DNA from: a candidate division WWE3 bacterium
GTDB taxonomy: Bacteria > Patescibacteriota > WWE3 > UBA101185 > UBA10185
Direction of reading: 5' to 3'
Length of the DNA stretch: 64,000 nt
NCBI GenBank assembly: GCA_003599255.1
Contig: QZJF01000016.1
Location: forward strand, 863 to 64,862
Under the pieces are notes generated by a model. That model had not been told where the DNA came from and did no database searches. It worked only from the letters and a program-made list of their open reading frames with translations. The translations under genes and the position numbers were made by a program. Position 1 is the first letter of the stretch, and every line of letters begins with the position of its first letter. Positions 265-59,254 of the stretch are shown here, one piece after another.

Positions 265-320
265 TGCATAGGAAGGTAAAAATTTTTATTACCTTACCTT
301 CCTATGCATCTCGTTCCTTT
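265..320. terminator. Perfect 15-bp inverted repeat (265-279 / 294-308) with 14-nt loop, followed by T-rich tract; likely bidirectional terminator between convergent genes
   Basis: gcataggaaggtaa ... ttaccttcctatgc read directly, then tctcgttccttttccttt. Sits between the stop of the + strand CDS (243) and the stop of the minus CDS (302). Confidence 0.5.
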
Positions 321-2509
321 TCCTTTAGAAAAAAAATAACTTCATTTAACCATTCCTTGCTGTGTGTCACGAATGTATTGTGTCCTGCGTCTTTGATTAC
401 CACAAAATTCGAATTTTTAATACCCTTGTGCAACTTTTCCCCTTCGTATAACGGGGTCATGGTGTCCTTATCGCCCCAGATTATTAGTGTCTTCGAGTCA
501 ATACTATTCAGATATGCTGTAAGATCCATGTTTACTACTTTATTTAATGTTTTACGCATTAGTGGTGTTGCACGTTTATAATCGGGGGACCCCATGAATT
601 TCACATAAATTTCAAGCAGGCGGTCATACAATTTTTCCGGCAACATAGTCCTAAGAAACTTTTTAATATTTTTAACAGAAAAAGATTTGGATATTTCAGT
701 TTTAACATCTTTTCTGTTTGCTACACCCGCAGCATTTGTAAGTATTAATTTATTTACAAGATCAGGATACTTAGAGGCGATATAAATTGCGAGTCTCCCT
801 CCAAAAGAATGCCCGATAAAATTGTAAGGTTTTCCGATATTCATTTGGCTTAATTTTTGGATCACAAAATCCGCATATTCAGGAATGCCCCAAGCCTCTT
901 TTGGTTCTTCGAGATCAAAACCTGGAAGCTGCATACTTACAGTCGGTAATCCTGCTGTATTAAGTGAGTCTTCAATTAATTTCCACTTCTTGGCCGAGGT
1001 GCCCCAACCGTGAAGCAGCACTGTTGTATTTTTGTTAGTTGTATCCATAACATGTAAAAAATCATCAACCAATTCCGAATGTTTAAATTCTAAATTTCCG
1101 TTAACGACAATATAAACTCTTTCGTTACCCGCTGACAGAGCTTGCATTTTTTTAATTGTCGATCCCTTATCATTTACTGTAATGATTTTTACGTTATCTT
1201 TAAGATGCCCGGCATACTTGACAGCTTTTATTCCCGAAAGTATTACATAATCAAACTTTGAGTTAATAATGTTCCAAGCTTTCTCATCCATTTCTTCTTC
1301 TTCATGAAAGTCAAAGTCGCCAAGTACAAGTATACGTTTGCCCGTCCAATGAAGCTCGTCAATTAATTCAAGTAAATGTTTAGTGTTTGTAGGGGTACCT
1401 TTAGCATAGTTGCTAAATAACTTAATACGTCCGTTTTCTAATATATGCCAGTTCATTCTTCCGGGCATAGGAATAAAATTAGTCAGACTGTCCATTATGG
1501 TCTGCGGATTGATTTTTAGTACATATCCTACCGATACCGCTGCTAAAGCAGTATACAGTCCTGATTTTCCAAGCAAAGATATGTTGCCGCTCACATTTTT
1601 GCCCGAAACGGAAATTTGATATAGGGTTGATATATCGAATTGTTCGAGTACTTTGCCTTTAATATCTCCATCTTTAATACCGAAAGTTACGATTTCTTTT
1701 TTTAACTCGTTACTTAATTTCAACGACTTGGCAAGATTTGGATCGTCTTTATTTAAAATTACCGTACCTTTTTCTTTTTGACATTTGATAATCTCGTTTT
1801 TAGCCTCAATTATACCTTCGACTCCTCCCAGAGTTTTGGAATGCGCTTCTTTAATGTTGAATACAAGCGATATATCAGGAGGAGCAATTCCACAAAGTTT
1901 TTCGATGGCTCCTTTTCTATCGGCAGGCAGTTCTATTACTAAGTAATAAGGTACTCCGGCGGTACTTAATGCTAGGTTAAAGACCATTTCCGGCAAAGTA
2001 ATTGGTGTAGGACGGGTTGTATATAACTTGTTTATATTTAACCCGGAGTTTTGTAAAACGGTATTTATACAATGAACCACAGTGGTTTTACCGGAGGATC
2101 CTGTAACCGCAATAATCTTTGTATTTAAATTTTCCAATAGGGCCTTTGCGGCTATTCCCATAAATTCTATTACGTTAGCCACTTTGAAATACGCGACTTC
2201 AGAATCTATTTTGTCAGGAAACTCCTCACAGACAATAATTTTGGCGCCATTTTTTATGGCATTATCTATAAAAGGTTGTCCATCAAAAAAGTATTTTCCG
2301 GGATTAGGTTTATACATGTACCAATATCTTTCTTCATATTTTTCTATAGGAAGTCTCGTTGCAAAGAAGACTGAGTTCACCACGCATTTTCTGCTGTCGG
2401 AAGTTGCCAACACAGGTCCAATTGTTTCAAGATCTACTGATGTATTTTTAATGTTTGTGCAGTGATCCCTTAGTATCTGCACTAATAGCTTTTTTTGGTT
2501 TAAATTCAT
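302..2509 (-). CDS. Mur ligase family protein (MurF-like, UDP-MurNAc-peptide ligase) fused to a C-terminal alpha/beta-hydrolase domain
   Basis: P-loop IIAVTGSSGKTT typical of MurF (GSSGKT) in the N-terminal ~480 aa. C-terminal ~240 aa has HGWG and GHSFGG nucleophile elbow and is ~50% identical to the standalone hydrolase at 3900-4628. Confidence 0.7.
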   Translation of the reverse strand: MNLNQKKLLVQILRDHCTNIKNTSVDLETIGPVLATSDSRKCVVNSVFFATRLPIEKYEERYWYMYKPNPGKYFFDGQPFIDNAIKNGAKIIVCEEFPDKIDSEVAYFKVANVIEFMGIAAKALLENLNTKIIAVTGSSGKTTVVHCINTVLQNSGLNINKLYTTRPTPITLPEMVFNLALSTAGVPYYLVIELPADRKGAIEKLCGIAPPDISLVFNIKEAHSKTLGGVEGIIEAKNEIIKCQKEKGTVILNKDDPNLAKSLKLSNELKKEIVTFGIKDGDIKGKVLEQFDISTLYQISVSGKNVSGNISLLGKSGLYTALAAVSVGYVLKINPQTIMDSLTNFIPMPGRMNWHILENGRIKLFSNYAKGTPTNTKHLLELIDELHWTGKRILVLGDFDFHEEEEMDEKAWNIINSKFDYVILSGIKAVKYAGHLKDNVKIITVNDKGSTIKKMQALSAGNERVYIVVNGNLEFKHSELVDDFLHVMDTTNKNTTVLLHGWGTSAKKWKLIEDSLNTAGLPTVSMQLPGFDLEEPKEAWGIPEYADFVIQKLSQMNIGKPYNFIGHSFGGRLAIYIASKYPDLVNKLILTNAAGVANRKDVKTEISKSFSVKNIKKFLRTMLPEKLYDRLLEIYVKFMGSPDYKRATPLMRKTLNKVVNMDLTAYLNSIDSKTLIIWGDKDTMTPLYEGEKLHKGIKNSNFVVIKDAGHNTFVTHSKEWLNEVIFFLKEKERDA

Positions 2510-3216: not shown

Positions 3217-3714
3217 TTATTCCCTATACGGCGTCAATCTTAAAAGTGTTTTCGCCCCGTCTCTGCTTAATCCGTCCCTAATCACTTTTTTCACCGAATT
3301 TCTCATCTTGCCGAGCGCCTCGCCCGAAGCGGTTTCGGCCGGACCAAACTGAGATGTTAGTTTGTTGTTGTATCCTCTAAGGCTGGATTGATCAAGTTCT
3401 GATAGTTTTCCTGTGGAATCTAATTGAAGCTGAAGTGCTTCGGCTTCAATAGCATACCCCATTGCCTGTTCAAACATAGTGTCAGCATTCATACCGGGGT
3501 TGAGTTCCCCCCAGACAAATTTTCTCTCCGGAGCTGTTCTATCTTTTTGAAGTGCTGCAAGATACTCTTTGTAATGGACAGGTAGACTTTCGATAAATTC
3601 TTGCCTGGGGCTTTTTACGACTTCAACAGGTTTTATCTCTTCTGCAACGGGTAGTCCGGTTAAATCCATTTCTTCGACTTCTGGTTTATATGTTTCTGTC
3701 ATAGTTACTTTCAA
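3217..3714 (-). CDS. hypothetical protein
   Basis: 165-aa ORF with AT-rich codon usage. No recognisable motif. Confidence 0.4.
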   Translation of the reverse strand: MKVTMTETYKPEVEEMDLTGLPVAEEIKPVEVVKSPRQEFIESLPVHYKEYLAALQKDRTAPERKFVWGELNPGMNADTMFEQAMGYAIEAEALQLQLDSTGKLSELDQSSLRGYNNKLTSQFGPAETASGEALGKMRNSVKKVIRDGLSRDGAKTLLRLTPYRE

Positions 3715-3899: not shown

Positions 3900-4628
3900 A
3901 TGAGCAACCAAGAAAGCTCTACCGTAATCCTGTTACATGGTTGGGGAGGCGTTGCTTTTTCGTGGCAGACCATAGAGCAAAGACTTAAGCAAATCGGGTA
4001 TCAATGCCTGAGTATTAGATTCCCCGGATTTGACCTGCCGCAGCCTTCAGAGCCTTGGGGTGTTCCTGAATATGCGGATTTTGTGTTGAACAGGCTTGAA
4101 CACCTTCAGTTAAAGCCTCCGTTCACATTTGTAGGACATTCGTTTGGTGGCCGAATAGCAATATATATTTCAGCTACCCGTCCGGATATGGTGGATAAAC
4201 TGATACTCACTGATTCAGCCGGTGTTGAGAATAGGCGTACACCGAAACTTCTTTTTGTGAGTACACTTTCCAAAGTGTTCAAGAAGCTGGATGGAGTACC
4301 GGTTGTGAATAAAATCAGCAGATCATTGCGTAAAATTATCTGGCGATTCACAGCCTCGCCGGATTACAGCAATGCCACCCCCATGATGCGGGAAATATTG
4401 AAGAAGGTTGTTGCCTTAAATCTTGAGCAATACCTTCCGAGTATTTGTGCTGATACATTAATAATATGGGGAGATCAGGACGAGGTGACCCCTATCAGGG
4501 ATGCAAAGGTTCTTAACCGCGGTATAAAAGGTTCAAGCCTTGTTGTGATTAAGGGTGCCGGTCATCATTCTCATATTTCGCATGTCCACGAATGGATGAA
4601 TTACGTCATTCATTTTCTGCGGAAGTGA
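3900..4628 (+). CDS. alpha/beta-hydrolase fold protein (paralog of the C-terminal domain of the MurF-like fusion)
   Basis: ILLHGWGG, VGHSFGG nucleophile elbow, C-terminal GHH. High similarity to residues ~495-735 of the 302-2509 protein. Confidence 0.8.
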   Translation: MSNQESSTVILLHGWGGVAFSWQTIEQRLKQIGYQCLSIRFPGFDLPQPSEPWGVPEYADFVLNRLEHLQLKPPFTFVGHSFGGRIAIYISATRPDMVDKLILTDSAGVENRRTPKLLFVSTLSKVFKKLDGVPVVNKISRSLRKIIWRFTASPDYSNATPMMREILKKVVALNLEQYLPSICADTLIIWGDQDEVTPIRDAKVLNRGIKGSSLVVIKGAGHHSHISHVHEWMNYVIHFLRK

Positions 4629-8157: not shown

Positions 8158-9201
8158 ATGCTTTCCACGAAGGCTAACGAAAACCCCAACTCACAAGATG
8201 AAATAAATGAAAAAGTGGCCCCGGAGGGGGATGACGAAAAACAAAAACCTGATGAAGAATTGGGTTCGGGTACCGGAGAAGTCGTCAATAAGAATGAAGA
8301 AGAGGAAAAAAATAAGCTGGAGGAACTTAGAAAGGCCTGGTTTAATTCCAGTTTGCGCTCCACTTTGGCAACCGTTGGTGCAGGAGGTGCCTTTGTCGCC
8401 CGCGAGGCTTTGTCCAGTTATGCATCTGTAATTTCAAATCGTGAATATTGGGCTAGATATTATTATTTTGCACAAGATATATTTCAGAAGGGATTGCCTG
8501 CCACTTCTATAGAGGTTCAAAACCTGCTTCAGAATGCAAATACGGGTGAAGTGGCATTATTGGTAACAGGTGTAGCTTTAGCAGGATACGCTGTGTACGA
8601 AACTTACAAATCGTACAAGGCTGAAAAGGAATTCAAAAAGGAAAAACTGGTTCAACTGCATGAATTTTCAGATACTGCAGAAATGACTACTGAAGAGCTT
8701 GAGATGGTACAAGCAAAAGAAGATTGGTACGGCAATAGAATTAAGGCTGTCGTTGCCGCGGGATCCTCAGGTGTTGCTCTCATAGCAAAAAAATATCTTT
8801 CAGAAATTGCCCACAGCACTTGGTGGCAAGCAGAAAAGCAAGCAAGACTATTAGATGACTTAAGATACCACGACAAAGAACTTCCCGCAGAGGTTATTCA
8901 AAAATTTTATGCACTTTGTGAAAAAGTACAATATGCGGAAACCGGTGCTGCTGCAGCATTAGCTGCCGCAGTAGCGTTGGCAGGCTATTCTGCTTATAGT
9001 GCTTATAGGGCATTTAAAGCAAAAGAGGAGCTTAACCCCAAACCGGAACAGGAACCAGAACCTGAACCGAAACCGGAAACGAAACCAAAATCTGAACCAA
9101 AATCGGAACTTGTAGCACTAAGTTGTCCCGCTTGCGGCGCACCAGTGTCGTCTGCTGATAGCGTATGCCCTTATTGCCAGTCTGGTCTTGAAAGAAAGTA
9201 A
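8158..9201 (+). CDS. hypothetical Ala-rich protein with Pro/Glu/Lys linker and C-terminal CxxC...CxxC zinc ribbon
   Basis: ATG start. PEPEPKPETKPKSEPKSE repeat linker. C-terminal CPACGAPVSSADSVCPYC. Confidence 0.5.
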   Translation: MLSTKANENPNSQDEINEKVAPEGDDEKQKPDEELGSGTGEVVNKNEEEEKNKLEELRKAWFNSSLRSTLATVGAGGAFVAREALSSYASVISNREYWARYYYFAQDIFQKGLPATSIEVQNLLQNANTGEVALLVTGVALAGYAVYETYKSYKAEKEFKKEKLVQLHEFSDTAEMTTEELEMVQAKEDWYGNRIKAVVAAGSSGVALIAKKYLSEIAHSTWWQAEKQARLLDDLRYHDKELPAEVIQKFYALCEKVQYAETGAAAALAAAVALAGYSAYSAYRAFKAKEELNPKPEQEPEPEPKPETKPKSEPKSELVALSCPACGAPVSSADSVCPYCQSGLERK

Positions 9202-9224
9202 AAGTTTTTTTGAAAGGATTATTT

Positions 9225-9632
9225 ATGAAAGATAATAGATTGCTACCTACTCTTACCGAGTTGTTAAAGGAGATTGATCCAAAAGATGCAATGGATCGTG
9301 CTGAAGTAGGTATGAATATAGCTACACTCTCATTAGTAAAAGCTATACAAATTACCTCCGAGGAACTAACAGAAGAACAAAGAAAGGTAGTAGAAGGTAT
9401 ATTGAACAAAACGGAAAACAAAACGGATAGTACAAAGGAAATAATTGAATATCTGGATAGTATCTCAAAAAAGGATATATACCTTAAGAATCTGGCTGAA
9501 GCCACGAATTATTGGACCATTGATTTTATGCTCATGCTATATAAAAAAGTTGCTAAAGAGAAAAAAGAGCTGATTGATGTCTTATGGCCTAAACTAGGTG
9601 ATATAGCTGACGGTAAGCTTGATTATTTCTAA
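9225..9632 (+). CDS. hypothetical protein
   Basis: ORF track begins at a TTG (9210). The first ATG is at 9225 with an aaagga SD-like sequence upstream. Confidence 0.4.
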   Translation: MKDNRLLPTLTELLKEIDPKDAMDRAEVGMNIATLSLVKAIQITSEELTEEQRKVVEGILNKTENKTDSTKEIIEYLDSISKKDIYLKNLAEATNYWTIDFMLMLYKKVAKEKKELIDVLWPKLGDIADGKLDYF

Positions 9633-9890: not shown

Positions 9891-10424
9891 TTAACTGTAG
9901 TTGGGATCTGGCTTATAGTCTTTTGGTAAAACTACTTCGGGAGAAAATCTTTTTGCGTAATTGGCTAAAGTATCTAGTCCTACAAAAAATCTTCTTTTAT
10001 CTACTTCTTGAATGTTTTCTATACTATAAAATTCCATTTTTCCCTCTGAGTTAGATTTTATTTGTGAACCATATACTTGTGGTTTACCTAAGTACATATT
10101 CACACGGTCTTCTAATAATGCAGTATTTTTTGGCGAAACTTTGTCCTGATGAGATAGCATTAAATATAGGTATTTTTCCATAAACTCGATATCACTTTTG
10201 GGAGCATGTTGAACAATTAACCAGGCCGATTTAGAAATCTCTTCGCCAAAGCGTGGGATATCTATTAATCCGTATTTTTCTACAACCTCCTTTAATATAT
10301 TGGTATGTTTTTGATCTATTTTGGTAAGCTCATCCCAGTCGATATTTGGGCTATTACGCATTTCTTGATCGACTTTTTTCATATCTAGGATGGTTTTTTT
10401 GATTTGTTCGAATGTATTATCCAT
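9891..10424 (-). CDS. hypothetical protein, probably co-transcribed downstream of the ATP-grasp ligase (possible accessory protein of the graspetide locus)
   Basis: 177 aa with no TM segment. Lies 46 nt downstream of the ATP-grasp gene on the same strand. Confidence 0.4.
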   Translation of the reverse strand: MDNTFEQIKKTILDMKKVDQEMRNSPNIDWDELTKIDQKHTNILKEVVEKYGLIDIPRFGEEISKSAWLIVQHAPKSDIEFMEKYLYLMLSHQDKVSPKNTALLEDRVNMYLGKPQVYGSQIKSNSEGKMEFYSIENIQEVDKRRFFVGLDTLANYAKRFSPEVVLPKDYKPDPNYS

Positions 10425-10469
10425 AAAAAAAGAGAGATGTTGCAGGCAAGTTACAACATCTCCATGTTA

Positions 10470-11429
10470 TCATATCGACCCTTTACTCAGCATTTCGGCC
10501 ATTGCTTTGGAAATAACGATATTAGTATTTTCCTCCACGAATGCCCATTGTCCATTTGGATTCAGCTCTAAGAACCAATATATGCCTTCGGCATCTCGAG
10601 CTAATTCAATAACGCCAAACGGTAATCCTAGTTCTCTGAGATATCGTACACACTTGTCGGAAATCTCCTCCGGTAATTCAATCGGATCATAAGCTACTTG
10701 TCCGGTTGTAATCCCAGTCCTCCAGTCGGCTTTATTTTCCATTGAGCCTAAAGGAGTTGTGGAACATGCGAAAACTTGGTTACCAACGATAGTAATACGA
10801 ATATCCAGCTTTGGTGATATCTCCTGTTGGAATATCGTAGGTGTCAGGTGTAGCCCGCTAGTGTTTAAGGGCATTCCCTTGGCAATAGACGTAGCATAAA
10901 ACGCCTTAATACTGTTTCCGTCCTCAGACAGGAGTGGTGTGAATTTCAACGGCTTTGCCACTATTGAAGGAAATCGATCCTGAAAGTCTTCGATCTGCGT
11001 GCTATCGTTTGTAACAATTGTCTCCGGAACACAAAAACCCAGTCTTTGCGCTATTGCCAGTTGTAAAACCTTGTTATTTGCACGCATATGATTCTGGTAA
11101 GGCGATACCCAGAATTTGTCAGCAAGTAGATCGAAAAGCAATTTAACTCCCGAGGAATAGGCGTTATGGGCATACTCCTTATACTCTTCAGGTACCGGGT
11201 ATTGTGCTCGCTTTATGAAAGCTGGTTTTCTATACCATACAGAGCGCACAGAACTTAGATCTATACCGTTGTAAATCACACTAACAATTCCATCTCTGGT
11301 TACGTAGGTTAACTTCCCAGTTTCCGGAAAAGTGAATGTGTCGATTATAAGCATTTGTTCATCAAGGTGCTGTTGGACAAAGGGTAAATGCGAATCATCA
11401 GCTACAGATACTACAAGTATCGATGCCAT
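10470..11429 (-). CDS. ATP-grasp ligase of the microviridin/graspetide maturase type (MdnC/MvdD-like)
   Basis: FLELNPNGQW, LDIRITIVGNQVF, KADWRTG and VWYRKPAF motifs closely resemble recalled MdnC motifs (FLEINPVGEFFW, LELRITIVGEQIF, KYDWRKEG, VWYRR). ATG start with AAGGAG SD. Confidence 0.7.
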   Translation of the reverse strand: MASILVVSVADDSHLPFVQQHLDEQMLIIDTFTFPETGKLTYVTRDGIVSVIYNGIDLSSVRSVWYRKPAFIKRAQYPVPEEYKEYAHNAYSSGVKLLFDLLADKFWVSPYQNHMRANNKVLQLAIAQRLGFCVPETIVTNDSTQIEDFQDRFPSIVAKPLKFTPLLSEDGNSIKAFYATSIAKGMPLNTSGLHLTPTIFQQEISPKLDIRITIVGNQVFACSTTPLGSMENKADWRTGITTGQVAYDPIELPEEISDKCVRYLRELGLPFGVIELARDAEGIYWFLELNPNGQWAFVEENTNIVISKAMAEMLSKGSI

Positions 11430-11459
11430 TAGTTTCTCCTTCTAGGATCATGTGAAATG

Positions 11460-11498
11460 GGGAAATAGGTCTCTGTTGTTACATAACACCTATTTCCC
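11460..11498 (-). promoter_or_regulatory. Intercistronic perfect 11-bp stem hairpin (gggaaataggt / acctatttccc, 17-nt loop) between precursor gene and ATP-grasp gene; no U-tract
   Basis: Read directly. Precursor-downstream stem-loops are common in RiPP operons and are thought to set precursor:enzyme transcript ratios. Confidence 0.45.
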
Positions 11499-11505
11499 TG
11501 CTGGG

Positions 11506-11631
11506 TTAATCGTCCTCGGCGTAGTCGCCATCATGGTCAGGTCCGACAGTAGTCGTGTTGGTTTGAGTTCCACCCACACAAGCAACTGTTACGGGAGCTA
11601 CGATCATAAGATCTGCACCAAACGGTTCCAT
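11506..11631 (-). CDS. candidate graspetide precursor peptide (41 aa): MEPFGADLMIVAPVTVACVGGTQTNTTTVGPDHDGDYAEDD
   Basis: Small ORF immediately upstream of and on the same strand as the ATP-grasp gene. Extended SD agaaaggagg 8 nt before ATG. Core has a Thr cluster (T22,T24,T26-28) followed by an Asp/Glu cluster (D32,D34,D36,E39-D41). Leader PFGADL is reminiscent of the microviridin PFFARFL motif. Confidence 0.6.
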   Translation of the reverse strand: MEPFGADLMIVAPVTVACVGGTQTNTTTVGPDHDGDYAEDD

Positions 11632-11664
11632 GGCTTATTCCTCCTTTCTTATGTGATAATCCTA

Positions 11665-11693
11665 CATATACAGCCTCGTGTGCCCTTAGTCAA
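11665..11693 (-). promoter_or_regulatory. possible sigma70-type promoter for the precursor-ATP-grasp operon (TTGACT-17-TATATG on minus strand)
   Basis: On the plus strand, agtcaa at 11688-11693 and catata at 11665-11670. About 30 nt upstream of the precursor SD. Confidence 0.3.
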
Positions 11694-11823
11694 CGATAGT
11701 CAAAAAGTTAGGGTTTTCGCCAGTTATTTATCCGTATATGAAGTAGCAGTTCGAATATAGTTTAATTTGGATTGTTATAGAAAAATCTGATTATTTGTTG
11801 CTATGAAAACTAAAAGTCGTTAC

Positions 11824-11898
11824 TGGCTCCCCCGGCTGGATTCGAACCAGCGACCTAGCGCTTAACAGGCGCCCGCTCTACCGCTGAGCTACAGGGGA
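11824..11898 (-). tRNA. tRNA-Asn (anticodon GUU), CCA encoded
   Basis: Cloverleaf folded by hand: U1-A72 acceptor start as in E. coli tRNA-Asn, D-stem GCTC/GAGC, anticodon loop CTGTTAA, T-loop GGTTCGAATCC. Confidence 0.85.
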
Positions 11899-11988: not shown

Positions 11989-12912
11989 CTAGGCAGTGTT
12001 GGACGGAGGGTTGATGTCTTCAAGGTTCTTGGGTTCTTTTCTGTCCTCCGCTTTCTCGTCTTTTGCCAGATTCATAATTACCACCATGGCAAAGCCTATA
12101 TTTACAAGGGCAAACCAGAAGGGTAGATTCATATTAAATCCCACTGCATTGATCAAAACCTCGATTGTAATTGGCAAAGTCATGGCGTGCAGACATACTT
12201 GCATATTCTGCGTATACGTAAGCTTGGAACCGAAAATAAACGAACCCATCCAGGTAATGAACGCCGCCATCAAAATATAAATTGTCCTTAGTACGAGGTA
12301 GTAAAATAGTGTTCCCAAAAATATGAAGACTGCCAGTATGTATGGCAAATACTTGGTGAAAGATCGTACGCTTTCGACTGTGCTATCAAATTTCGATCTA
12401 TCAAATTGGGTGTCCGGGAGCTCTTCAATGGGATATACATCGTATTTGTTTGCCTGTTTAACTAACACATTCTTTTCGTTTACCAAAATAAGAGTATTGA
12501 GATTTTCAAAATCCTCTACAGTTCCGTTGTGGTCAAACACAATTAGATTTTCCGGAATTTCTGCTGCAGGGGTTTCAGGTGCCTGAGCCATGTCTTCCAG
12601 GCTTTCAACCTCAGGGAAAGGAATAATCAACGGTTCGGGTAGATTTATTGACCATTCGTTACCTTTAGTGGATATTACAAGCTCGGAAGGGAAGACATCC
12701 TTAATTTTTGTAAGCATCTCTTCCATTGTTCTGTTCAGCTCCGGATAAATATTAAATGAAACTGAAATAGTAATCAGGATCGAAGAAATAACGGCTAGTG
12801 AAAAGAAGTACTTTAGAGAAAAGGCAAGTGTAGTCTTTAGGACATCTTTGTAGTATCCTATAGATAGTAAACTGTTTTTATAAACGTAAACAAAGGCTTT
12901 GAGCTTATTCAT
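11989..12912 (-). CDS. hypothetical membrane protein
   Basis: 307 aa. N-terminal and C-terminal hydrophobic segments flank a soluble acidic region. Confidence 0.45.
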   Translation of the reverse strand: MNKLKAFVYVYKNSLLSIGYYKDVLKTTLAFSLKYFFSLAVISSILITISVSFNIYPELNRTMEEMLTKIKDVFPSELVISTKGNEWSINLPEPLIIPFPEVESLEDMAQAPETPAAEIPENLIVFDHNGTVEDFENLNTLILVNEKNVLVKQANKYDVYPIEELPDTQFDRSKFDSTVESVRSFTKYLPYILAVFIFLGTLFYYLVLRTIYILMAAFITWMGSFIFGSKLTYTQNMQVCLHAMTLPITIEVLINAVGFNMNLPFWFALVNIGFAMVVIMNLAKDEKAEDRKEPKNLEDINPPSNTA

Positions 12913-19271: not shown

Positions 19272-19347
19272 GGGCGATTAGCTCAATTGGCAGAGCGCTC
19301 GTCTTATACACGAGTGGTTCCTGGTTCGATCCCAGGATCGCCCACCA
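19272..19347 (+). tRNA. tRNA-Ile with UAU anticodon (reads AUA), CCA encoded
   Basis: Cloverleaf with standard numbering: acceptor GGGCGAT/ATCGCCC identical to tRNA-Ile(GAU) at 56613-56689. Anticodon loop CTTATAC gives anticodon TAT. Confidence 0.75.
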
Positions 19348-52018: not shown

Positions 52019-53338
52019 GTGAATCAGCTAATTTCAAAAATTAAAGAACACAATAAAGACCTTAAAAACAGGGAAATAGAGGGTATTTTGTACCTGCTGA
52101 TCTCTAATCATGGTATCTCGAGCATGGATTTGATAAAAGCAACCGGATTACCCAAAGAAACTTTGAGAATTTTTAAAACTTCCATTTCGCATTTACTTGA
52201 AAAAAATGATGAGGATAGACTGCAATTTACGGAAGAGAGTCTAAAAGTACTTAGGGAGTCCAATCTTCGTCCATATGATTGGAGTACTGTGAAATATGCA
52301 AACGCAGCCGCTGAAGCCGGGCTCGTTGACATAAGGAAAAAATATAAACTGCAGCCTAAGAGGGAGTTTGATCAGTTTTTTGCTACCGAAAGCACTTCAA
52401 TAGCCAAAACGATGGTGATGGAAAATAAATTAGGTCTGGAAAATAAAGATGTAGTGCTTCTTGGAGACGACGATCTAATTTCTATAGCACTTCCGTTGTT
52501 GGGAATTAAGCCAAAGAGCGTAACAGTGCTGGATATAGACAAGGATTTGCTTTCCGTTATAGAGGACATAACCGCCGATATGGGTATAAACAATACCCAC
52601 ACCTCTGTATACGATTTCAGAAAGGACCCTGACAAAAATCTTTTAAATAAATTTGATGTAGTTGTAACTGATCCGCCATATACATCGTCAGGCGTAAAGT
52701 TATTTTTAAACAGAGGGGTTCAGTTGCTCAAGAAAAAAGACGATCACTCTGGGAGTTACATTTTCTTTTATTATGGAAACAGTTTCAAATCACCGGAAAA
52801 GACTTTAAAAGTTCAGGACATTATAGGTAGATTCAATTTGGTAATTGAAGACAAGATAGACAAGTTTGCGCGGTACAATGGGGCGGAGTCTATAGGCAGC
52901 GCCAGTTCTTTGTATGTTCTTAAGTCCACATCAAGTACCTTTGAACTCAGTGACTTATCGGATTATTCCGATATTTATACGTACTCGTCAACTTCCGAAG
53001 AAAAGTTTCCGTACGTGGATCACTTTACCTTCAAGCTGTATAACGTTCCTGCGAACATGCTGAAATCAAAAACCGCTATTTTCAAGGCTGCCGGAGATTT
53101 TTGCACAAGACACAAGTTAAAGGTTGTTGACCAAAAGGTTACGAAGTTTAAAGGACAGGGGTTAACAGTAACCTATGTGCTTTCAAATTCAAACCTCTTG
53201 CTTCATACCTGGCCTGAGCACGGAGCACTGCATGTGGATCTTGTAACCTGTTCTCCCATATATGATAAGGAAGGACTTTCATACACTCTCATGAAGGTAT
53301 TCGGAGCTAAATCCATAGATACTAGGAAAATTGAATAA
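52019..53338 (+). CDS. putative bifunctional polyamine enzyme: aminopropyl/methyl-transferase-like domain (GDDDL, DPPYT motifs; DUF43/BpsA-like, tentative) fused to C-terminal S-adenosylmethionine decarboxylase (SpeH-type)
   Basis: C-terminal HFTFKLYNV ... LLLHTWPEHGALHVDLVTC matches the SpeH hallmark HTWPE...D.FTC. Middle region has VLLGDDDLIS and VVVTDPPYT. GTG start. Confidence 0.55.
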   Translation: MNQLISKIKEHNKDLKNREIEGILYLLISNHGISSMDLIKATGLPKETLRIFKTSISHLLEKNDEDRLQFTEESLKVLRESNLRPYDWSTVKYANAAAEAGLVDIRKKYKLQPKREFDQFFATESTSIAKTMVMENKLGLENKDVVLLGDDDLISIALPLLGIKPKSVTVLDIDKDLLSVIEDITADMGINNTHTSVYDFRKDPDKNLLNKFDVVVTDPPYTSSGVKLFLNRGVQLLKKKDDHSGSYIFFYYGNSFKSPEKTLKVQDIIGRFNLVIEDKIDKFARYNGAESIGSASSLYVLKSTSSTFELSDLSDYSDIYTYSSTSEEKFPYVDHFTFKLYNVPANMLKSKTAIFKAAGDFCTRHKLKVVDQKVTKFKGQGLTVTYVLSNSNLLLHTWPEHGALHVDLVTCSPIYDKEGLSYTLMKVFGAKSIDTRKIE

Positions 53339-56612: not shown

Positions 56613-56689
56613 TGGTGGGCGATCGTGGACTCGAACCACGGACCTTTCCCTTATCAGAGGAATGCTCTAACCACCTGAGCTAATCGCCC
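56613..56689 (-). tRNA. tRNA-Ile (anticodon GAU), CCA encoded, antisense to the rRNA genes
   Basis: Cloverleaf: GGGCGAT acceptor, anticodon loop CTGATAA, T-loop TTCGAGT. Confidence 0.85.
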
Positions 56690-59088: not shown

Positions 59089-59164
59089 CGGGCCTGTAGC
59101 TTAGTTGGTAGAGCGCCGCATTTGCATTGCGGAGGTCACGGGTTCGAATCCCGTCGGGTCCACC
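59089..59164 (+). tRNA. tRNA-Ala (anticodon UGC), CCA encoded
   Basis: G3·U70 identity pair. Anticodon loop TTTGCAT. T-loop GGTTCGAATCC. Confidence 0.9.
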
Positions 59165-59254
59165 AGATTAGTAAGTGCCCTTTGAAAACTGAATAAAAGT
59201 ATCTGATTTCGAAAGAAGTCAGGATACGAAAACTCTAAATTTTATGACAACAAT

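Follow-up and report, generated by a model that had tools for sequence, protein, structure and literature searches.

A self-contained three-gene cassette for a graspetide, comprising a precursor peptide, an ATP-grasp macrocyclase and a protein of the DUF6624 family, is probably carried by a 64-kb stretch of DNA (hereafter the window) from candidate division WWE3, a lineage of the Candidate Phyla Radiation (CPR; Patescibacteria). We put the probability of this reading at roughly 80%. Graspetides are stapled peptides, often protease inhibitors. The whole cassette spans ∼1.75 kb, with a single ligase gene and a single DUF6624 gene following that of the 41-aa precursor. Coordinates are positions in the window, and the window, L001, L005 and so on denote the loci that were compared. 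The three genes are as follows:

11506..11631, minus strand: graspetide precursor gene, 41 aa (open reading frame [ORF], Shine-Dalgarno sequence, leader conserved upstream of homologous ligases)
10470..11429, minus strand: graspetide synthetase (ATP-grasp macrocyclase), 319 aa (hidden Markov model [HMM] and PDB matches, AlphaFold2 [AF2] model)
9891..10424, minus strand: DUF6624 (PF20329) protein, 177 aa, without a signal peptide (Pfam, gene neighbourhoods, AF2 model)

An initial annotation, made from the letters of this DNA, had proposed a compact locus of a graspetide precursor and an MdnC-like ligase, and the proposal was borne out by the HMM ranking, N-terminal domain and fold of the enzyme together with the conservation of the precursor. 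The 319-aa ligase has the same sequence as NCBI RJR27100.1, which is annotated as hypothetical and comes from a candidate division WWE3 bacterium, and its translation contains the motifs FLELNPNGQW, LDIRITIVGNQVF and KADWRTG that had been quoted in favour of an MdnC/MvdD-type enzyme over a RimK or glutathione-synthetase type. The check suggested at that time, an HMM search of the protein against models of maturases for peptides that are synthesized on ribosomes and modified post-translationally (RiPPs), gave a clear answer. Among the NCBIfam models, the best match was TIGR04187 (SAV_5884 subfamily; 1.5e-61), with TIGR04185 (MvdC) at 5.9e-48 and TIGR04184 (MvdD) at 4.3e-46, while the housekeeping RimK family and glutathione synthase models reached 2.6e-12 and 2.5e-05, which places the RiPP maturases ahead of RimK by ∼50 orders of magnitude. 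All three RiPP scores lie under the curated cut-offs (208.3 of 350, 163.6 of 425 and 157.5 of 475 bits for TIGR04187, TIGR04185 and TIGR04184, respectively), and the ligase is thus a relative of these named subfamilies and a member of none. The MvdD-type pre-ATP-grasp N-terminal domain of Pfam (PF21068) was detected at residues 11-113, its 29.4 bits exceeding the gathering score of 27, and the sequence matches in the PDB were PruB, MdnC, MdnB, AMdnB, CdnC and PsnB. When an AF2 model of the ligase (pLDDT 93.4) was submitted to Foldseek, ranks 1-32 were all occupied by graspetide macrocyclases (MdnC, PruB, CdnC, AMdnB, MdnB and PsnB; E 4e-25 to 1e-17, TM up to 0.86; the table gives PDB 9BOU as PruB), and RimK appeared from rank 33. 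MdnC itself matched with a TM of 0.86, an E of 4e-25 and 25% identity. The ATP-grasp hallmark positions K159, R211, D235-W-R237 and E288-x-N290 are invariant in 33 homologs; the catalytic roles of K159, R211, D235, R237, E288 and N290 are presumably those known from the superfamily in general. HMM scores and predicted fold thus agree in supporting the earlier view of the protein as a graspetide ATP-grasp macrocyclase of the MdnC/MvdD type.

The 41-aa ORF on the minus strand, MEPFGADLMIVAPVTVACVGGTQTNTTTVGPDHDGDYAEDD, lies 76 nt before the co-directional ligase gene and is preceded by a strong Shine-Dalgarno sequence, all as first described. Its leader (M-E-PFGADLM...VGG) is very short at ∼21 aa, and the predicted core is T22-QTNTTTVGPDHDGDYAEDD-41. 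The peptide is present in public databases as a hypothetical protein, and an E2T variant occurs in a second metagenome. Immediately upstream of each of the closest ligase homologs (44-47% identity) is a small ORF whose product begins with (K)PFG[AV]xL[LM] and closes with a Thr/Ser/Lys cluster and, after it, an Asp/Glu cluster. A wider scan of species-representative genomes yielded 80 loci, among which WWE3, Saccharibacteria, a Chloroflexi metagenome-assembled genome (MAG), Actinoallomurus and others have PFG leaders upstream of the ligase gene. The leader motif P[FY]G..[LFMY][LMFT] is present in 14 of the 390 co-directional small frames that lie just upstream of ligase genes compared with 3 among the 12,516 remaining small frames of these loci (Fisher p = 2.6e-19, an optimistic value because the motif was refined after the data had been seen). 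Initially, 4 loci had drawn attention to the motif, and 10 further loci, independent of these, were then found to have it. An alignment of the precursors shows an invariant P-F-G and a consensus core GxTxTxT...DxDxD, with the shared pattern visible in the cores of L008 (TNTGTGTSQPDADHD), L013 (TRTHTHTGMGDSGQDSETDSD) and L009 (TATQTHVTDGHHDADTDD). The architecture that had been recognized at the outset, a PF-x-x-x-L leader and a Thr cluster followed by an Asp/Glu cluster, therefore recurs upstream of homologous ligases, and small ORFs of this type are conserved beside the ligase in homologous loci, the point on which the initial annotation had staked its proposal. These sequence comparisons support the 41-aa ORF as a genuine precursor. 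The precursors of two Dojkabacteria loci, L017 (3800-3895) and L020 (3806-3901), are unusually short at 31 aa (MFAVKYFTQIESTDANATSTVDTSSGQTDFD), and their leader reads MFAV[KN][YF]F instead of PFG.

The 177-aa gene next to the ligase had been listed as uncharacterised. It is present as stated, but it encodes a DUF6624 protein (Pfam 55.1 bits against a gathering score of 27) and is a conserved member of the cassette, not an incidental neighbour. Nine positions (D37, Q72, H73, D106, R107, Q116, G119, Q121 and R145) are invariant in 67 sequences, and the AF2 model built from the alignment of these sequences (pLDDT 97.2, pTM 0.91) has eight helices and a small beta element. No relative was found in the PDB. 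Judged by this confident, all-alpha model, DUF6624 appears to represent a new fold that resembles no known enzyme. The DUF6624 gene directly follows that of the ligase in the window, L001-L008, L013, L017 and L020, which come from WWE3, Dojkabacteria and one MAG labelled Pseudomonadales, and in L004 it overlaps the ligase gene. The order precursor-ligase-DUF6624 was observed in unrelated neighbourhoods (dnaG/rpoD, a ribosomal-protein operon, hrcA-grpE-dnaK), and no related cassette locus shares flanking genes with the window. Because the neighbourhoods differ in every case, the three genes travel together as a cassette. Ligase and DUF6624 distances are correlated (r = 0.72).

Several candidate expression signals, along with a neighbouring tRNA gene, surround the three genes:

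11665..11693, minus strand: possible sigma-70-like promoter, TTGACT, 17-nt spacer, TATATG (weakly suggested by reading of the sequence)
11640..11645, minus strand: Shine-Dalgarno sequence AGGAGG, 8 nt before the precursor ATG (direct reading of the sequence)
11460..11498, minus strand: stem-loop in the precursor-ligase spacer (folding energy)
10425..10463, minus strand: terminator-like hairpin with a 12-bp stem and a T7 run (terminator scan, folding energy)
11824..11898, minus strand: tRNA-Asn(GTT), a neighbour not counted in the cassette (ARAGORN and Rfam)

The possible promoter was not reported by a consensus scan because position 6 of its -10 hexamer is not T. The stem-loop in the spacer has a perfect 11-bp stem (GGGAAAUAGGU / ACCUAUUUCCC), no clean U-tract and a folding energy of -23.4 kcal/mol (z = -3.5). 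A stem-loop follows the precursor in all six loci examined (window, L001, L005, L008, L013 and L009), in the others mostly with a U-tract; those outside the window lie at ∼3931-3965 (L001), ∼3934-3972 (L005), ∼3940-3976 (L008), ∼3933-3951 (L013) and ∼1685-1710 (L009). Across cassettes, the position of the hairpin is conserved and the sequence is not. The stem-loop in the window probably serves to attenuate transcription or to stabilise the mRNA, raising precursor over enzyme levels. Partial termination or mRNA stabilisation that lifts the precursor above the enzyme is a common arrangement in RiPP loci. The second hairpin (-16.4 kcal/mol, z = -3.6) abuts the start codon of the DUF6624 gene, before which no Shine-Dalgarno sequence was recognisable, and an analogous hairpin occurs in the ligase-DUF6624 spacer of L001 (4960-4990, plus strand). 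A search of the cassette for known RNA elements with Rfam found only the neighbouring tRNA.

From these elements, a route to the product can be proposed. The precursor would be translated from its strong ribosome-binding site, with the stem-loop past its stop codon probably keeping precursor mRNA above ligase mRNA. The ligase would read the N-terminal PFGADLM leader, the counterpart of the microviridin element PFFARFL and of the general Phhx(1,2)h graspetide signature, and, if it works like the rest of its family, would use ATP to phosphorylate Asp carboxylates in the C-terminal DHDGDYAEDD segment. Attack on these acyl-phosphates by the Thr hydroxyls of TQTNTTT would then yield omega-ester macrolactones. 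Potential donors are T22, T24, T26, T27 and T28, the turn is V29-G30-P31, and potential acceptors are D32, D34, D36, E39, D40 and D41. Because this layout, TxTxT(T)T / V-G-P / DxDxD, fits the equal-spacing rule of stem-loop graspetides, three nested esters are predicted: T28-D32, T26-D34 and T24-D36, or the same register shifted by two residues, with a fourth ester to E39 or D40 being possible. The product would be a stapled beta-hairpin, 54-72 Da lighter than the unmodified peptide. The leader could plausibly be cleaved off at G20-G21, the pair that immediately precedes T22.

How does this product compare with known graspetides? The initial annotation had noted that the core fits neither the plesiocin (TTxxxxEE) nor the microviridin (TxKxPSD) consensus, which we confirmed, and had raised the prospect of a new graspetide group, which holds only in part, as CPR clusters of this architecture have already been catalogued. 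Microviridin (MdnA, with MdnB/MdnC = MvdC/MvdD; group 1) shares with the window the ligase fold (TM 0.86), the PFGADLM/PFFARFL leader and ATP-dependent esterification. It differs in having two ligases, a Lys donor, the TxKxPSD core, a GNAT acetyltransferase and an ABC transporter, whereas the core here has no Lys or PSD, the ligase is single and its neighbours are DUF6624 and tRNA-Asn; the topology would differ as well, being a predicted nested hairpin here and an interlocked cage in microviridin. The window core (TQTNTTTVGPDHDGDYAEDD) also lacks the TTxxxxEE motif and the repeats of plesiocin (group 2). For graspimiditide (group 13), no methyltransferase family was found in the neighbouring ORFs (8158-9201, 9210-9632 and 11989-12912). 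A D34-G35 pair is present, but in the predicted C-stem and not in the loop, and an enzymatic aspartimide is not expected because the cassette has no PIMT-type O-methyltransferase.

A close parallel is found among the characterised stem-loop graspetides (OEP6-1, fuscimiditide, amycolimiditide and albusimiditide), which have nested Thr-Asp esters with equal stem spacing; in albusimiditide, for example, the pairs are T19-D32, T17-D34, T11-D40 and T9-D42. Their ligases (ThfB, GsaB, SAV_5884-type) share TIGR04187 as best match with the window ligase, and their cores share the Thr-rich N-stem, short loop and Asp-rich C-stem, with T-x-T / D-x-D spacing. On the other hand, the window ligase is under the TIGR04187 cut-off, a PIMT-type O-methyltransferase is missing, the predicted loop is 3-5 residues long instead of ∼10, the leader is only ∼21 aa and the host belongs to the CPR and not to the Actinomycetota.

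With respect to host and gene content, two surveys describe similar clusters. A catalogue of 43 graspetide groups reports DUF6624 as frequent in groups 18, 20, 23 and 42, and group 42, a bioinformatic prediction only, has DUF6624, its only conserved co-occurring protein, in 82% of its 22 biosynthetic gene clusters (BGCs) and a representative from Ca. Komeilibacteria (Carter, Ramesh, Saad, Mubarik & Mitchell, ACS Chem Biol 2026; PMC13097080). Like the window, with its WWE3 origin and adjacent DUF6624, this group combines a candidate-phyla host with a minimal BGC of precursor, synthetase and DUF6624 and no transporter. In contrast, the leader of the representative group 42 precursor (MKKNSTPKPLILDRLRQPIEDIYKGGEKAMEGFTTHGTPNDPDSGGTD) reads KPLILDRL, and tblastn found no significant similarity between this precursor and the window peptide, only the generic leader, GG and Thr...Asp layout being common to both; its IYKGGEK element is nearer to the cores of L004 and L005 than to the window core. 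This precursor was absent from our surveyed loci and protein collection, and the window accession was not found in the supplements examined for Carter 2026 or for the second survey, Makarova 2022. Only six database proteins, P0002-P0006 and P0008, reach an alignment score of 70, the threshold of the catalogue's similarity network, with the window ligase. The likeness to group 42 is one of host and gene content. The second survey describes two CPR graspetide branches, a leader signature Phhx(1,2)h, a branch 1 core TxxxTx(6-10)Dx(1-4)D, and a "cluster 23" protein, often a lipoprotein, with conserved His and Arg (Makarova et al., Biol Direct 2022; PMC8939145). By this description, the "cluster 23" protein is DUF6624. 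The window agrees with these branches in its CPR host, its DUF6624-type partner, its leader, where P3-F-G-AD-L8 fits the signature approximately (Gly at the second "h"), and its core, where T22-QTN-T26-x7-D34-G-D36 matches the branch 1 pattern. It differs from branch 1, which comprises Parcubacteria with 329-331-aa ligases and other precursor families (e.g. MLKQQEMPFALRF...TVQTTVYATGKYGADSKSDPD), as well as from the published WWE3 loci of branch 2, which have 309-aa ligases and unrelated ∼97-aa precursors.

The role of DUF6624 was considered in light of its wider distribution. At E <= 1e-3, 13,562 cluster representatives belong to the family, and many of them carry tandem domains or are fusions. 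Among P0258-P0283, for example, many members have two or three tandem domains (330-660 aa) or N-terminal TPR-like extensions. Such arrangements suggest a modular binding or enzymatic unit. Signal or lipoprotein-like N-termini occur in about two-thirds of the sampled members and in none of the CPR copies. In a survey of ∼84 DUF6624 loci, some of them redundant, an ATP-grasp gene of any kind was found in only 3. The nearest relatives of the window protein, P0122 (70% identity) and P0123 (50%, from another WWE3 genome), stand alone, and a neighbour-joining tree places these orphans within the clade to which all ligase-linked DUF6624 proteins belong. A 62-aa ORF downstream of the orphan copies was examined and rejected as a precursor, since it is not precursor-like. 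Stand-alone copies (L088/L089 with P0123, L091 with P0128) and the L005 cassette lie among small DUF4440/SnoaL, AHSA1, NUDIX, DUF4256 and alpha/beta-hydrolase genes. Conversely, in Saccharibacteria and Chloroflexi, sister loci combine a PFG precursor with a ligase of 35-40% identity, and DUF6624 was not found within 4 kb of them; some of these have near-identical core patterns, and L009 has a similar TxTxT...DxDxD core.

This distribution suggests that the present ligase clade does not depend strictly on DUF6624. In addition, an ATP-dependent ligase in the cytoplasm could not be served by an extracytoplasmic protein, so the secreted DUF6624 members argue for an accessory role. A protein that is mostly extracytoplasmic and often kept without a ligase would follow a pattern like that of bacteriocin immunity, orphan immunity genes included; the lipoprotein LanI-type immunity proteins offer a comparison. 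A cofactor-independent processing hydrolase would fit the pattern as well. We therefore favour a role after cyclisation (immunity, or leader or ring processing) over that of an obligate ligase partner. At a low level of confidence, DUF6624 may be a new-fold protein acting on or against mature graspetides, either as a self-immunity factor or as a ring- or leader-processing hydrolase. If so, stand-alone DUF6624 genes in the CPR and other bacteria would provide orphan immunity against the graspetides of neighbours, and the minimal WWE3 cassette would be a toxin/immunity-style module used in competition between CPR bacteria or between CPR and host.

At a similarly low level of confidence, the ligase might need DUF6624 as an obligate partner for its activity or stability, in the way that MirB depends on MirC in rosaritide, or DUF6624 might be a tailoring enzyme of a new type that adds a secondary modification to the cyclised peptide. 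The gene sits directly after the ligase in all WWE3 and Dojkabacteria cassettes, with the overlap in L004, the two proteins diverge in a correlated fashion (r = 0.72), the invariant residues (D37, Q72-H73, D106-R107, Q116, G119, Q121 and R145) look active-site-like, and the CPR copies, having no signal peptides, would share a compartment with the ligase. The rosaritide MirB-MirC and corallotide CorC-CorD systems likewise have a small conserved extra protein beside the ligase. However, MirC is PpiC-type and chaperone-like, whereas DUF6624 has an unrelated all-alpha fold like no known enzyme. Unlike in these partner systems, DUF6624 is dispensable in sister ligase clades with similar cores (e.g. 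L009), most of its members are secreted or lipoprotein-like, and most of its genes, including those for the 70% and 50% relatives, have no ligase nearby.

A third view, in which DUF6624 is common in the CPR, has no functional link to the graspetide and lies beside the ligase by chance, with separate transcription here, is unlikely. It would account for the terminator-like hairpin with its T7 run and the missing Shine-Dalgarno sequence before the ATG, for a GC content (0.32-0.35) below that of the ligase (0.42), and for a large family whose genes mostly lie away from ligases, the nearest relatives of the window copy standing alone. Yet the same gene order recurs in at least eight independent loci with entirely different flanks, the family occurs in 82% of the BGCs of group 42, with enrichment also in groups 18, 20 and 23, and it is among the top three graspetide-associated families by abundance (Makarova 2022).

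Several points weigh against the cassette as read here and against the post-cyclisation role that we favour for DUF6624. Because the ligase is below all the named NCBIfam cut-offs, its substrate chemistry could differ in detail, and the number of rings and their ester connectivity are predictions only. The literature holds no experiment on this group or on any DUF6624-linked graspetide, the sole study of a group 18 cluster being on other enzymes. The initial annotation had noted a single ATP-grasp enzyme with no obvious transporter or protease, and indeed no exporter, C39 peptidase or other dedicated protease or transporter was found among the large ORFs of the 64-kb window, which leaves maturation and release unexplained. 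Attenuation after the precursor is uncertain because the hairpin in the window has no U-tract, and so is co-expression of DUF6624 with the ligase, given the terminator-like hairpin and the missing Shine-Dalgarno sequence. Finally, the nine invariant polar or Gly positions of DUF6624 hint at catalysis, for which pure binding or immunity has no need, and since other graspetide ligases can depend on partner proteins (Carter 2026, PMC13097080), a partner role in the CPR clade is possible.

The idea that the cassette belongs to a genomic island integrated at tRNA-Asn, suggested initially because tRNA genes are common landing sites, is quite improbable and was rejected. The cassette does begin 192 nt downstream of the tRNA gene, and its non-syntenic contexts in other genomes indicate that it has moved between genomes. 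However, no second copy of the tRNA 3' end was found anywhere in the window, even with 3 mismatches allowed, no flanking direct repeats of note were detected, and no integrase or recombinase is among the neighbouring genes. Nor is there a compositional break over precursor and ligase: their GC content is typical of the window (ligase 0.42), lower values (0.32-0.35) being confined to DUF6624 and the spacer past it. None of the homologous cassettes examined is reported beside a tRNA gene. The one possible exception is L001, where frames upstream of the precursor (∼3540-3640, minus strand) read like a tRNA gene region (e.g. "GFEPTTLKL"). This hints that the L001 cassette may be near a tRNA too.

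Least probable is that the enzyme is RimK-, glutathione-synthetase- or cyanophycin-like and the small ORF spurious, as weak secondary matches (RimK, PF08443, 1e-05; GSH-S_ATP) and the label "glutathione synthase/RimK-type ligase-like" given to some homologs in databases might imply, an identity essentially refuted by the ∼50-order lead of the RiPP models, the MvdD-specific N-terminal domain, the graspetide ligases at the top of the fold search and the conserved precursor with its leader motif.

The locus is a genuine cassette of the catalogued class of CPR graspetides with DUF6624, and in this respect it is an ordinary locus that would not surprise a specialist. What is new here is the fold model of DUF6624, the size of its family, its stand-alone nearest relatives and the DUF6624-free sister loci. 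The new fold, the large and mostly unlinked family, the nested orphans and the DUF6624-free sister clades narrow the plausible roles of the protein. Being among the most compact cassettes known, the one in the window provides a convenient system for addressing what DUF6624 ("cluster 23") does, a question posed by two surveys. Because CPR bacteria have tiny genomes with few natural-product loci, each such cluster hints at interactions with hosts or rivals; the value of this minimal system therefore extends to the role of graspetides in CPR biology.

As for the surroundings of the cassette, PADLOC returned no defence-system match for the ligase, DUF6624 or two neighbours, and membership in a defence system was rejected on this basis. 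A 347-aa protein encoded nearby (8158-9201, plus strand) has an acidic, Lys-rich N-terminus, hydrophobic segments, a C-terminal zinc ribbon and a PEPKPE-type tandem repeat at 9028-9087; its gene is not conserved beside other cassettes. The large ORFs of the window include FtsH, DNA ligase, an M23 peptidase and two fusions. One of these is a 735-aa ORF (302-2509, minus strand) with a Mur ligase middle domain fused to a C-terminal alpha/beta hydrolase domain, and the other a 439-aa ORF (52019-53338, plus strand) with the C-terminal domain of the branched-chain polyamine synthase BpsA fused to an S-adenosylmethionine decarboxylase (AdoMetDC) domain. Further tRNA genes include a tRNA-Ile with the anticodon TAT (UAU) at 19272-19347 (plus strand). 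Bacterial tRNA-Ile(UAU) is uncommon, AUA usually being read by a lysidine-modified CAU tRNA. In addition, tRNA-Ile(GAT) (56613-56689, minus strand) and tRNA-Ala(TGC) (59090-59165, plus strand) are located 2.4 kb apart on opposite strands, whereas the usual layout is a co-directional pair within the rRNA spacer.

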